From Eledone cirrhosa (lineage: Eukaryota), in assembly GCA_964016885.1 (NCBI GenBank), contig CAXHJY010000511.1:1-64000 (forward strand): DNA of 64,000 bases. The letters are read 5' to 3'. Below are positions 29,301-62,572 of the stretch, piece by piece; the first letter of the stretch is position 1, and each line of letters opens with the position of its first letter. A program made the translations under genes and the position numbers. Under the pieces are notes generated by a model. It saw only the letters and a list, made by a program, of their open reading frames with translations. It searched no databases and was not told where the DNA came from.

Positions 29301-29482
29301 ATAGGAAAATATATGACCCCAACGGCAGAGCTCAAGCCGTTTCGACGGCTAGTCCTGAAATAGCCGTCGAAACGGCTTGAGCTCTGTCGTCAGGGTCATA
29401 TTTTTTCCTATTACCCACTCTACTACCCTAAGTACTCTGGTGCGTTATGGTCCATCTGGTTCCTTACCACATTTCCTTTGTT
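29301..29482 (+). mobile_element. (TA)n-embedded fold-back, family H4; relatives at 35335-35440, 39781-39988, 46878-46980
   Basis: Inverted arms containing GAAACGGCTTGAGCTC, then an ACTC tail. Confidence 0.75.
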
Positions 29483-31035
29483 ATATATATATATATATAT
29501 ATATATATATATATATATATATATATATATATATTATATATATATATATATATTATATATATTATATATATATATATATATTATATATATATATATATAT
29601 ATATATATATTATATATATATATATATATTATATATATATATATATTATATATATATATATATATTATATATATATATATATATTATATATATATATATA
29701 TATATATATATATATATAATATATATACATATATTATATATATATATATATATTATATATATATATATATATAATATATATACATATATTATATATATAT
29801 ATATATATATATATATAATATATATACATATATTATATATATATATATATATATATAATATATATACATATATTATATATATATATATATATATATATAT
29901 ATATATATACATATATTATATATATATATAATATATATACATATATTATATATATATATTAATAAATATTTGCTCTAGGGTTCTTATATATTTGATATAT
30001 ATTTATCCTTATCGAGCTCTCTTTGGATTTTAGTCTTCAAATTTCTTATTACTATTATTACTATATTGTATATATATATATATATATATATATATATATA
30101 TATATATATATATATATATATATATATATATATATATATATATATATATATATATATATAAGATTTAGCATTTTCATACTTGTAGGCTTAATGATTGCAT
30201 AAGACTTAAAAGTTATGTATTATATACTTGGAAATATACAAACAGAAGAGGATTATTCAGATTAAGATATAAAATCAAACTTTCTAGCACTCTTCACTAA
30301 GTTTCCCAAGTAGACATTGCTGCAATTGTCACCTAAGTAGATACTTAAGCCGTTCTTACAAGTATTTAATTCAAATATTCCTGCAACTAGATATTTCAAC
30401 AACTCACACAAGTGGCGTTCACTTGGAATAACTCCTACACCAAACTGTGAAGATTGTTCCGTTGGAAACATGTAACCAGCGACGCCATTCTTCACAAATC
30501 GGTCGATAAAATGTTAAATATCGTATTTCCCGGCGTCGAAGACGCTACTTTTTTCCCCCCTAAAATAAGCCTCAAAAATCTACCATGCGTCCTGGAGGCC
30601 GAAGGTTGCTTATTATTTTGTCGGACGCATATGCTTTGCAGCATAGAGTTACGGCCCTTTACGTTCTGAGTTCAAATCCCACCGAGGTGAACTTTGCCTT
30701 TCATCCTTACAGGGTCGATAAAATAAAGTACCATAATTGCTGGCCTTGTGCCAAAAGTAGAAACAATTTTTTTTTTTTTTTTTCAAATTTTTGGTTGTCA
30801 AAATTAGGGTGCGTCCTCGAGGACGAAGCGTCTTCAGCGCCGGGAAATATGGTAATTGTTTTCAGTTTAGACACAAAGCTGGACATTTTCGGGGGAAGGG
30901 AAAAGTCGATTAAATCTATCAATCTAGTACATTACTGGTACTTTATTTTATCAACTTTGGAACGATGAACGGCAACGTTGACACTGGCGAGATTTGAACT
31001 CAGAACGTAAAGAGCTTTAACCAAATACTATAGAG

Positions 31036-31783
31036 CAGTCATGTGACATTGAGGGTCGCCCGAGGGTCACAAGGGTCACATATGTGTTGTCTGAGGGTCA
31101 CAAGAGTCACATATGTGTTGTCTGAGGGTCACAAGGGTCACATATGTGTTGTCTGAAGGTCACAAGGGTCACATATGTGTTGTCTGAGGGTCACAAGGGT
31201 CACATATGTGTTGTCTGAGGGTCACAAGAGTCACATATGTGTTGTCTGAGGGTCACAAGGGTCACATATGTGTTGTCTGAGGGTCACAAGGGTCACATAT
31301 GTGTTGTCTGAGGGTCACAAGAGTCACATGTGTTGTCTGAGGATCACAAGGGTCACACATGTGTTGTCTGAGGGTCACAAGGGTCACATATGTGTTGTCT
31401 GAGGGTCACATATGTGTTGTCTAAGGGTCACAAGGGTCACATATGTGTTGTCTGAGGGTCACAAGAGTCACATATGTGTTGTCTGAGGGTCACAAGAGTC
31501 ACATATGTGTTGTCTGAGGGTCACAAGGGTCACATATGTGTTGTCTGAGGATCACAAGGGTCACACATGTGTTGTCTGAGGGTCACAAGGGTCACATATG
31601 TGTTGTCTGAGGGTCACAAGGGTCACATATGTGTTGTCTGAGGGTCATACACGACACCTAATCGCGCACACTACAACTACTTTTTTTCAATTTATATTAC
31701 AAAGATAAAACATGCTCGCGCTGTTAAAATCTGTGTGCAGGCCGCAAGTGTGCTTGTAAAGGGCCGCATGTTTGGCATGCCTG
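31036..31783. mobile_element. hAT-type MITE with ~30-bp internal tandem array (31060-31650)
   Basis: CAG...CTG ends; near-TSD CTATAGAG / CTGTAGAG. Confidence 0.8.
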
Positions 31784-31814
31784 CTGTAGAGCACTTTGTT
31801 CGGATTCTGACGGA

Positions 31815-32043
31815 ATAATTGTTTCTAATGTTGACAGAAGGCCAGAAATTTGAAGAGGGGGAGGAGTGAAGTCGACTAAATTGACCCCAGTACATTACTG
31901 GTACTTTATTTTATCGACCCCGTAAGGATGAAAGGCAAAACTAATCTTCGACGGGATTTGAACTCGGAACGTAAAGGACCGTAACTATGCGCAGGAGAGC
32001 AAGTTATCCGATGTTGTACCGATTCTGCCAATCTACAGCCCTT
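31815..32043 (-). mobile_element. S1 SINE
   Basis: Matches S1 consensus. Confidence 0.8.
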
Positions 32044-33051
32044 CCCTAACTTTATAATTGAAACATATAAGTGATGATGGGTAAACCTCTTCCATCAAAG
32101 AAACTGAACGGTGATGGTGGGCGGCTTTACTTGTGAACCAACTGGAAAGTATTTGCAATAGGACATATGTATGGCAATTACATTCATTGAATTGTCTTGC
32201 TTAAAGAACGAAAAAAAAGTAGAGAAAATTGTGAAGGAATTTAATCTGCTTGAGATGTATTTTTTAAAATAAAAATCACTTTTGCGACATTTTTTCTTCT
32301 GTCTGGTGCATTAATGAAAAAAAAAAGAAAACGAAAATCAATTTTGATTCGTAGTGTCATTTAATCCTTGTCACTCAACACAGAATAATTAATTAAAAAT
32401 ACACAGATTTTCACAGTTGAGAAAAAAAAAAAAAAAAAAAGGAAAAAATATACCAATAAATAAATAGGTAAATAAATAAATAAATAAAAGACAATTTCTG
32501 TGGAAAAAATTTTCGAAAAGAAAATGAAATTATTTGAACTGAAAGATTAATTATTATTTTTTTTTTAATTTCTGGAAATGTTCTTGAAGAGGTGAATAGA
32601 TAATAACTTGTAGATAATCGATCTTCTGATCCACTAAATATGGGGGTGATATGGGGGTGGGAGGTGGTGTGGTGGGAGTGGGGCGGTTGACACTTTATTT
32701 GGAGTTTGTTCTCTATGTATGGTGTGTCTATATGTATGGTGTGTCTATATGCATGGTATGTCTATATATATGGTATGACTGTATGTATGGTATGTCTATA
32801 TATATGGTGTGTCTGTATGTATGGTGTGTCTGTATGTATGGTGTGTCTGTATGTATGGTGTGTCTATATGCATGGTATGTCTATATATATGGTATGTCTG
32901 TATGTATGGACCTGTAACTCCTGATGGAGTCGTGGCGCTGTTGTAGTGACGTATGCTACCGTGTATTGGGCATTTAAAACCCTGGCGGAGACTAATCTCT
33001 CTCTTCAGGTCTGAACAAAGGCAAGAGAGAGAGAAAGAGATAGATAGATAG

Positions 33052-33563
33052 ATATATTTCTTTATTAGCCACAGGGGCACAAAAGAAGGGGACAAATACA
33101 AAGGGGGAAGTTTACATACAATAAAAACGTGTAAAATGTTATCACAGATGGAATTTAAAAGTTAGTCGATTTTCCCCAATAGAGGGAGACAGTTTATATG
33201 GGTAACACATACCCCCGAAAAAAAATGTGCAACCCTCATCTCCAGGAGTACGAAGAGCTTGTACTCCTTTCCTCTCCTCCTCCTTTTCCTCAACCTACAG
33301 GCTGATATAGAGAGAAGGCCCATTCACTCGGGCCATTCTCGCCACTTTCACCCACCTTTCATAAAACTTGCTGGGGTACAGCACCTCTCTCTCCATCCTG
33401 ATTCTTCTTCCAAAGTGGTATTTGAAAAAAAGAATCAGTTGTTGGCCGGAGAGAAAGGTGTCTGACCTCAGCCCTTTCAACCTTGTCCACCATACAACCT
33501 CTTTCGCCATAGCTATCACACAAAGGAAAACCGCCTCTCCTTCGTTTTTGAAGGAGGGTGGCG
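33052..33563 (-). mobile_element. Tx1/L1-like LINE 3' end in (GATA)n
   Basis: Near-identical inverted copy of 28379-28885. Confidence 0.78.
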
Positions 33564-60912: not shown

Positions 60913-61251
60913 AAAAAAGAGACATAAATAATAAGAGACGAAACGCCATAACTTTTAGTAACGATTAAATATGTATTTTGATTGGTTAGATTTTTATTGG
61001 TGTGTATTTTTTTTTTGTAGTTTTTTTTAATCAGTTTTTATCGTGGAATCATATTTCATTTATTCTCCTAAGATGATTCCAGAACTTATTTTTTATTATT
61101 TTATGTTTTATTTTTAATCGGTGAAATTGAAGTCTGTCCCGATACACGCGTGACTCGTCTGTTTTTGTCATTCTGAAAGGAGCGGGAAAAAGATGACAAA
61201 ACAATATGGATGACATATTTAGTTGATAGAGGTGTTGTTTGTGTTTAATAA

Positions 61252-61560
61252 AGCTACAGGAGGAATTGCTACTGGCTGCACAGGGGCAAGTCCTAAGAAC
61301 GAAGTGGGTAAAACACCATTTTGACAAGGAGGAGGCTAGCCCACTCTGTAGAATCTGTGGAAAGAGAGAGGAAACTGTGGCTCCCATCGTATCCGAGTGT
61401 AAACACCTGGCCCAGACTCGCTATAAAGTCTGGAGCCATGATATAATAAGAAAGGTGATTCACTGGCATTTATGCAAACTAAACAATTTACCACATTCTG
61501 AGAAGTGGTATGAGCATAAGCTAGAATCGGTGATAGAAAACGATCAAGTGAAGGTGCTAA
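61252..61560 (+). mobile_element. R4-like fragment with CCHC knuckle region
   Basis: LLAAQ.Q.LRT, CRICGKREETVA.IVSEC, HD...IHW.LC, WYEH motifs. Confidence 0.85.
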
Positions 61561-61576
61561 GAATAATTCGCACAAT

Positions 61577-61870
61577 TCGGAAAACTTAATTTATGTAGTA
61601 ACCTGCCAAGGTTACCACGAACATTATGTAGGACAGACGAGGCTAAAGACAGATCCTGACAAAGAATGACAGTCCATAGGTAGCAAATCAGAACCCCCGT
61701 ATACTAGAAAGATCCCTATAAGCAAATATATAGAAGAACACAGAGGCACAATGCTAACAAACTTAGATGTTCTCCCGTTGTACCGATGTAATTATGAAAT
61801 CATAGAACAACGTCGAATTAATAAAGAGAAAATGTTTATCAGAAAATTCGAACAAAGTTTGAACTCACAG
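61577..61870 (+). pseudogene. Decayed GIY-YIG endonuclease of a Penelope-like element
   Basis: SENLIYVVTCQGYHEHYVGQT, then after a frameshift QRMTVHR*QIR...RRINKEKMFIRKFEQSLN. Confidence 0.75.
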
Positions 61871-62379
61871 CATAATAATTTTTTTATCACTAAAGGAAAA
61901 TAGAGTTACGCCCCTTATCATAGATTGAAAAATAAATTACACACAAGCGTCAAAATAAAAAAAGAAATCTGTTGTATCCTTTACTTTAGCAAGGACAGAA
62001 GCGACCCAAACCATGCAATCGAAAATCAGCATACAGGAGTTTTAACGAAAAAACATTTTAACCTAATAAGAAATGTTTTGAAGATCCAGAACGGAGAAAG
62101 CAAGCTTCGCTAACATCAATTTTTTTATATATGATATAAAGATCCTTTATATATATACCAGGTGCGCTTTTCAAACTTTTTTTATTATCATTTTCCACAC
62201 TTTTTTTCACTATATATATGTATATATATATATATATATATATATATATATATATATATATATATATATATATATATATATATGCATATATATATATATA
62301 TATATATATATATATATATATATATATATATATATATATATATATATATATATATATATATATATATATATATATATAT

Positions 62380-62572
62380 AGTTTTAATATAGATGAGATT
62401 CTACAGGACTAGAACTGTTTCATTCTTTAGAAATCATCAGGATCCTGATGATTTCTAAAGAATGAAACAGTTCTAGTCCTGTAGAATCTCATCTATATTA
62501 AAACTTTTATACTCTGCTATGTATTGAGTACCTTACTTACTGTGGTTACCTCCGATTCAACCCGGAATAACG
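62380..62572. mobile_element. Family H3 perfect palindrome (63-bp arms) with hammerhead-like core and tail; second copy at 62655-62770 (-)
   Basis: Centre GGATCC 62440-62445; CTGATGA 62445-62451, GAAA 62464-62467. Confidence 0.8.

Follow-up and report, generated by a model that had tools for sequence, protein, structure and literature searches.

Among retrotransposons, Penelope-like elements (PLEs) are those most closely related to telomerase. Craig et al. (2021, PMC8557442, section 11) described a Hydra clade of PLEs with a C-terminal endonuclease (EN+), marked by an RWK-type motif, DKT, CxCX5C, CxxC/CxH, and insertion into (TA)n; in the sections on these elements, the origin of the inverted pseudo-long terminal repeats (pLTRs) and of their one-sided tail is an open question. 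Poseidon of Anolis carolinensis cuts and extends both strands in vitro, with two internal start sites that bound the tail and a need for RNA 3′ of them; the main text of that report gives the two sites and no signal for them (Frangieh et al., 2024, PMC11167929). Here, we analyzed a 64,000-nucleotide (nt) stretch of DNA from Eledone cirrhosa (GCA_964016885.1, contig CAXHJY010000511.1; the window), which is the start of its contig in a 3.0 Gb genome. The window carries short fold-backs in (TA)n whose 3′ ends precede, by 5–7 bases, one or the other of two matching hairpins with a bulge, and the sequences suggest that these hairpins are probably RNA docking sites that set where the reverse transcriptase (RT) starts.

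Judged by motif marks and a by-eye protein comparison, the fold-backs are the inverted ends (pLTRs) of Hydra-clade PLEs. We named five families after window fold-backs: A (starting at 29301 and 39781), B (40242 and 51352), C (38441), D (42340), and E (62380). Intact open reading frames (ORFs) of 710–800 amino acids (aa) with YRDD and a GIY-YIG-like end occur in A, B, C, and E, and those of A, C, and E are 42%, 52%, and 40% identical to that of B. The four ORFs carry Hydra-type motifs (RWR, RWR, RWT, and RWR; SDKT, with DKT replacing DKG); columns 601–826 of their alignment hold the CxCX5C linker and the CxxC and CxH that flank the E and N of the EN, with no CCHH; and the proteins resemble published Hydra proteins. 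An earlier note on this DNA had called the families unrelated, which is true of their DNA but not of their proteins, which form a single clade. An inverted 5′ copy with an optional tail is present, as expected of EN+ PLEs, partial tandems that give pLTRs were found at loci L048, L258, and L260, and insertion into (TA)n was seen in copies and raw reads. Most window arms contain putative hammerhead cores, canonical in the pLTRs of B, C, and E and variant in A; the variant (L258:5250-5345, minus strand) differs in its core and has a long loop on stem II, which holds a TATA-like box and the fold-back centers. Family D is a non-coding unit of ~560 bp in partial tandems, with a longest ORF of 38 aa and no canonical hammerhead core on its sense strand.

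These families share with the described Hydra clade the RW[KRTI], DKT, and CxCX5C motifs, a C-terminal GIY-YIG with CxxC and CxH, the pLTR hammerhead, (TA)n insertion, an inverted 5′-truncated copy, and a one-sided tail. However, the tail described for the clade is 30–40 bp and is ascribed to EN resolution, whereas the tail here is ~70–140 nt and lies between two matching stem-loops; the word "hairpin" is absent from the main text of PMC8557442. The units are also longer, 3.5–3.9 kb because of long 3′ untranslated regions (UTRs) and ~5.9 kb in E (L263), compared with a general <3 kb that PMC8557442 presents as a tendency and not as diagnostic. A 27-nt pattern of family B has 2,760 exact matches in the genome, and suitable enzymes exist, because this family has many near-identical intact ORFs. 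Copies of family B (L052:3200-3700 and 6200-6700) show dense A-to-G changes on one strand that resemble A-to-I editing of RNA prior to its insertion, and G/A differences dominate the read tables.

Pfam matched a GIY-YIG domain in only one of the four ORFs (E 0.012) and gave no match for four ORF pieces; a PDB sequence search returned no relevant match, and a metagenome scan with the ORF alignment gave 151 pattern matches, none of which was confirmed. Only sub-threshold miRNA-like matches were present among the best 150 of 295 from Rfam, and a nucleotide search of the genome with the pLTR, which passes over common words, gave no match. An AlphaFold2 model (pLDDT 51.6) matched RT folds in general and was not used for the mechanism. 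Two other readings were rejected from anatomy: a miniature inverted-repeat transposable element (MITE) or Helentron origin, given the attached hammerheads and PLE ORFs, and an assignment of the hairpin to hammerhead stem III, given its position downstream of the ribozyme.

We call the hairpins H1 and H2 and the end sites before them S1 and S2, S2 being the end of the tail. The genome sample comprised 88 arbitrarily spaced 10-kb stretches (880 kb, four of them adjoining the window), in which ends of families A–E fell 45 times at S1, 38 times at S2, and 13 times elsewhere. The scoring windows for the two sites cover 12–15% of the references, so that ~15% of ends would be expected there if uniform, as against 83 of the 96 found. 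The 31 head-to-head pairs consisted of 23 S1/S2, one S1/S1, and seven with an unclassed end; thus, 23 of 24 classed pairs used one site per arm (P ~1e-6 if arms chose independently). The sample also held 17 S1 ends without a partner arm, and full-length copies of family E terminate at S1. A second set of 228 deduplicated loci, partly selected for tails, contained 73 pairs, 63 mixed, seven S2/S2 (one row of which is a cross-pairing), two S1/S1, and one unclassed. Inverted arms of family B ended at the same base in 11 of 12 cases and a base earlier in the other. The gap from the last copied base to the hairpin at the two sites of each family is 5–8 and 3–6 nt in A, 5–7 and 7–9 nt in B, 4–7 and 6–8 nt in C, and 5–6 and 6–9 nt in E (commonest classes, given as intervals because TA is ambiguous). 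At almost all sites, the most frequent junction class is compatible with a gap of 5–7 nt; copies of D were too few.

The fixed offset had been noticed earlier from six window pairs of arm end and motif start (29411/29417, 39910/39916, 40473/40478, 42470/42475, 51705/51711, and 62505/62511), all of which are exact. Five of these motifs close a hairpin as claimed; the copy at 29417 has lost its GAGT half through a 7-nt deletion. The distance from hairpin to (TA)n was given as ~45–65 nt and is 43–63 nt, except at 42475, where it is ~100 nt. For a further fold-back, in family C, the right arm does stop at the equivalent place (38996), but it is the left arm, read on the minus strand, that carries the tail and hairpin (38501–38525). 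The recorded exception at 56917–57335 is real: both arms keep tails, they agree at 177 of 190 aligned bases, and they end differently.

Beyond what the earlier note described, the hairpin has a conserved 2-nt bulge on its 3′ side. The motif consists of a 4-bp lower stem, this bulge, which starts with T, and a variable upper stem, often followed by RCT. In 17 hairpins, 84 of 85 cells of the stem alignment were paired, with G-U in only two, and double changes occurred in four of five pairs. The covariation score was reached by none of 500 shuffles, and slid controls were 21–47% paired. The double changes weigh more than the paired percentage because the 17 hairpins were picked for showing the motif and a short span. 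In a reference-free search of the 88 stretches and the window, the strict motif stood at the arm end in 25 of 77 one-sided fold-backs (a set that includes a few spurious pairs); at each of four offsets further downstream, the count was 0 of 77, and 200 shuffles averaged 0.2 (maximum 2).

A prediction absent from the earlier note was that a second hairpin should stand at the same offset past the other end, and this was borne out. In 27 of 28 printed loci of family B, found by protein search, H2 lies past the end of the tail, with G:C replacing A:T at the stem base, and is followed by ATG; H1 and H2 of this family resemble a tandem duplication. With patterns that demanded only two G/C bases after the tail end, full-length copies carried H2 at 12 of 17 distinct loci in A, 19 of 23 in C, 4 of 19 in E, and 7 of 11 in D, and the remainder ran into flank. 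H2 is therefore present in all five families, ahead of the ORF where there is one, 71–140 nt from H1, and it is almost never copied into insertions. The third pair is swapped in H2 of family E. Family D, though non-coding, retains both hairpins. A further family (Z/N; L266:4800-5400, L067:1900-2460, and L253:1690-2090) has both hairpins with no ORF seen nearby and is possibly a second non-autonomous derivative like D. Of six published Hydra consensi (PMC8557442 File S7), inspected by eye, three from coral and sea cucumber show the motif clearly: Hydra-1_Ajap has two such hairpins before ATG, and a single one stands close to the 3′ end of Hydra-2_Ajap and of Hydra-2_Amil.

Raw reads gave the same picture. 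Two Illumina runs aligned to family A contained TA-joined ends at S2 (8198 and 8918) and S1 (3176 and 2772), and depth past S2 fell from ~12,000 to 30–50 (>99% lost). Strand-switch joints at the fold-back center (5291–5305) were also present, besides 458 lesser loose ends; a pile of reads at 5294, which probably marks a restriction site, was disregarded. Each end site offers TA or AT for pairing. The two arms of a family A fold-back differ less from each other than separate copies do (1.5 vs. 5.5 differences per 44 nt). There is also an upstream limit: 24 of 26 copies of A begin ≤69 nt from H1 and 11 of 11 copies of E ≤73 nt (measured with the 3′ pLTR as reference), ~30 nt below a TATA-like box, and four of 16 H2-bearing matches of A begin at −60 to −69. 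This suggests that the limit in A and E may reflect run-off at the RNA 5′ end.

We propose that the GIY-YIG endonuclease would cut (TA)n on both strands, after which an RT docked at H2 would extend one 3′-OH from S2 and an RT docked at H1 the other from S1, with TA pairing of 1–3 nt assisting priming. Both complementary DNAs (cDNAs) would copy the same upstream RNA and then be joined head to head (twin priming), and the tail would correspond to the RNA between the two docking sites. In A and E, RT run-off at the transcript 5′ end may be why the short arms stop ~60–72 nt above H1; we hold this step more loosely than the others. Arm asymmetry and unpaired S1 ends agree with priming of both arms from target 3′ ends at independent sites, a process whose intermediates are invisible in genomes. 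According to the earlier note, a cis signal would determine where nicking, priming, or template switching takes place. The clustered ends and the covarying stem support such a signal, and the ends are not scattered in either genomic stretches or raw reads; among these options, priming agrees best with the data and template switching least, with nicking or trimming of DNA a possible alternative. In a bolder form, which we put forward tentatively and would not yet bet on, the paired hairpins each dock one RT of a two-headed complex and act as a 6-nt ruler, with both (TA)n ends priming at once. On this view, the hairpin pair by itself would be a portable signal, able to turn any RNA, such as that of family D, into a substrate on which the start base is chosen, and the short fold-backs, in their thousands, would represent paired cDNAs that ran off at the transcript 5′ end.

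Several observations weigh against docking hairpins as the cause of the end sites. The paired percentage is inflated by the choice of motif-bearing hairpins, and folding in a 130-nt context is only moderately favorable: the predicted lower stem attains a probability of ≥0.5 in no more than 12 of 27 hairpins and is the best partner in 18 of 27. H2 of family E is without the upper stem, and five of the seven H2 copies in D carry a C-A mismatch. The strict motif is missing in 52 of the 77 one-sided fold-backs, some of which are mutated or long-loop copies; it was seen only in Hydra-clade and unassigned families, and other unassigned families and family F, whose ORF we take to be Neptune-like, show the same geometry without it (in the window, e.g., at 29012–29202 and 54975–55144). 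Among the pairs, 7 of 73 are tailed on both arms and 2 of 73 on neither, the arms of E are barely more alike than its copies (4.6 vs. 5.8), and B and C are without a sharp upstream limit. By eye, Hydra-1_Amil and Hydra-1_Crog match the motif partly and Hydra-1_Obim doubtfully (PMC8557442 File S7). In the Poseidon test, as its main text reports it, both strands used the same start sites (PMC11167929), so that study does not account for the use of one site per arm.

The hairpins might instead be read in DNA, with the endonuclease binding the hairpin in single-stranded cDNA and trimming at a fixed distance while it resolves the intermediate. In GIY-YIG enzymes, the cut falls at a defined distance from the bound site, and the scarcity of G-U among the paired cells also suits a signal in DNA. 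Published accounts lean the same way in so far as they ascribe the tail to EN-mediated resolution (PMC8557442) and report that the D. virilis tail is required for EN recognition (PMC11167929). However, the two sites in vitro are described as RT start sites on RNA (PMC11167929), and trimming requires that cDNA synthesis start further 3′ and that the product be shortened exactly to S2, past which read depth is <1% of that before it; we consider this account unlikely. Somewhat less likely again as a general explanation is self-priming, in which a single S2-primed cDNA folds back and copies itself until it is stopped 5–7 nt before H1. It yields the same final structure, has been proposed for rotifer PLEs (PMC3846280), and suits arms that are often near-identical and reach about equally far in 44 of 63 mixed pairs. 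Yet the tail-less arm reaches further upstream in 11 of 19 asymmetric pairs, as it does in the window at 42058–42318. Self-copying is not the sole route because of these longer tail-less arms, the 17 unpaired S1 ends, and the full-length E copies that end at S1, and it leaves unexplained why the same hairpin stands at the same offset beside S2. It may still make some fold-back centers.

That TA microhomology with the target alone determines the ends, the hairpins being left over from an ancient duplication and serving elsewhere (promoter or translation), seems improbable to us. The TA or AT at every site and the duplication-like appearance of H1 and H2 in family B accord with it; however, the AT-rich pLTRs are full of unused TA steps, yet the ends concentrate at two sites, and fold and offset are kept across families only 40–52% identical in protein and in non-coding D. 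As for palindromes that arise in assembly or library preparation, restriction-based libraries can self-ligate, and the pile at 5294 probably marks a restriction site, but fixed asymmetric ends recur at many loci, the arms differ by point changes, and both strand-switch joints and TA-joined ends occur in raw Illumina reads and in the contigs of a second organism. We give this explanation almost no weight, and the artefact check raised in the earlier note came out in favor of real fold-backs, which are present in raw short reads.

The docking-hairpin proposal has parallels in other systems. Like Poseidon, as reported in the main text of PMC11167929, it involves two tail-bounding RT start sites, cutting and extension of both strands, a need for 3′ RNA, and AT-rich targets; unlike Poseidon, where the start lies inside one AC-rich stem loop of the ORF and that text names no repeated signal, every start here has its own copy of the bulged hairpin, 5–7 nt further 3′ in the 5′ UTR, with one site per arm. 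Family D resembles the non-LTR retrozymes, which are non-autonomous PLE derivatives as outlined in 10.64898/2026.07.22.740005, in being a short non-coding unit in partial tandems, but for the type I hammerhead per tandem unit found there, no canonical core was seen on the sense strand of D, which keeps the hairpin pair instead. Class, clade, inverted pLTR, tail, and two RT start sites are already published. In the literature searched, apart from subscription papers and image-only supplements (including S1 and S2 of PMC11167929), we found no report of the paired hairpins or the fixed offset; as far as searched, this is a previously undescribed paired cis-signal architecture in a known retrotransposon clade.

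If the two hairpins place the RT, they would explain the inverted copy together with the one-sided tail. In L1 twin priming, which Ostertag and Kazazian reportedly described in 2001, synthesis on the RNA is primed by the two 3′ ends of the target and yields a 5′ inversion; there, the second primer is said to anneal at variable places and the parts do not overlap, whereas here the sites are fixed and both arms hold the same sequence. Telomerase RNA stem-loops and hepadnavirus epsilon are RNA elements that position an RT, and the likeness is that a bulged stem-loop would fix the template register; no homology is claimed. A conserved, covarying, duplicated stem-loop at a fixed distance offers a concrete mechanism that a few point mutants could test, and the hairpin pair serves as a criterion by which to locate non-autonomous derivatives and the limits of elements.

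Table. Fold-backs, hairpins, and related copies in the window (hammerhead cores are predictions; +, −, strand;., not assigned to one strand).
Feature	Position	Strand	Details
Family G pieces	14205..14391	.	tailed piece 14315-14205; tail-less end 14361-14391; further tailed copy 50559-50701
Family C tail-less copy	21997..22193	+	partner arm not found in window search
Family A fold-back	29301..29482	+	tail-less inverted arm 29301-29357; tailed arm from 29350; H1 starts 29417, 3′ half deleted
Family A tail-less arm (35392-35331, −) fused to tail-only piece (35402-35445, +)	35331..35445	.
Family C tailed copy	37298..37557	+	hammerhead core 37367
Family C fold-back (called the "H1" fold-back in the earlier note)	38441..38996	−	tailed arm 38746-38441, minus strand; tail-less arm 38780-38996
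Hammerhead cores of this fold-back	38630 (−), 38896 (+)
Family C hairpin H1	38501..38525	−	4-bp stem, TA bulge
Family A fold-back	39781..39987	+	tail-less arm 39781-39840; tailed arm from 39851
Family A hairpin H1	39916..39939	+	TT bulge
Family B fold-back	40242..40560	+	hammerhead core 40374; H1 40478-40497
Family C fold-back, unequal arms	42058..42318	.	tail-less arm 42152-42318 (+) reaches ~174 nt upstream; tailed arm 42155-42058 (−), ~10 nt
Family D fold-back (non-coding, ~560-bp unit)	42340..42611	+	H1 42475-42504
Family A tail-less copy	46877..47045	−	partner arm not found
Family B fold-back	51352..51793	+	hammerhead cores 51458 (−), 51605 (+)
Family B hairpin H1	51711..51730	+	TT bulge
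B-related fold-back, tail on both arms	56906..57335	.	hairpins 56967-56988 (−), 57252-57274 (+)
Family E fold-back, centered on hammerhead core (62440 −, 62445 +)	62380..62572	+	H1 62511-62529
Family E-related tailed copy, terminates in (CA)n run	62657..62769	−

Family G has the same motif with a long upper stem, and no ORF was linked to it. Family F (window 29012–29258 and 54975–55144; L274-L293) has a one-sided tail without the bulged hairpin; a short AATAT-CG context, common to its two end sites, is perhaps a different paired signal. A 46-bp tandem array of at least 12 units (G000:C1:132947043-132947579) repeats the end of the family F tail. Several further families inserted in (TA)n, whose one-sided fold-backs are without the motif, lie at 50454–50584 and 41419–41552 of the window and at L208, L217, and L057. 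The window also contains a tandem array with a period of ~71 bp (42755–43373) and, at 36413–36781 (+), the restriction-like endonuclease C-terminus (HNRPD motif) of a non-LTR element that we take to be R4/Dong-like. Fragments at 19469–19912 (−), 10473–10865 (+), 28266–28646 (+), and 23005–23466 (−) are presumably RTE-, CR1/L2-, and L1/Tx1-like ORF remnants and a C2H2 zinc-finger piece.

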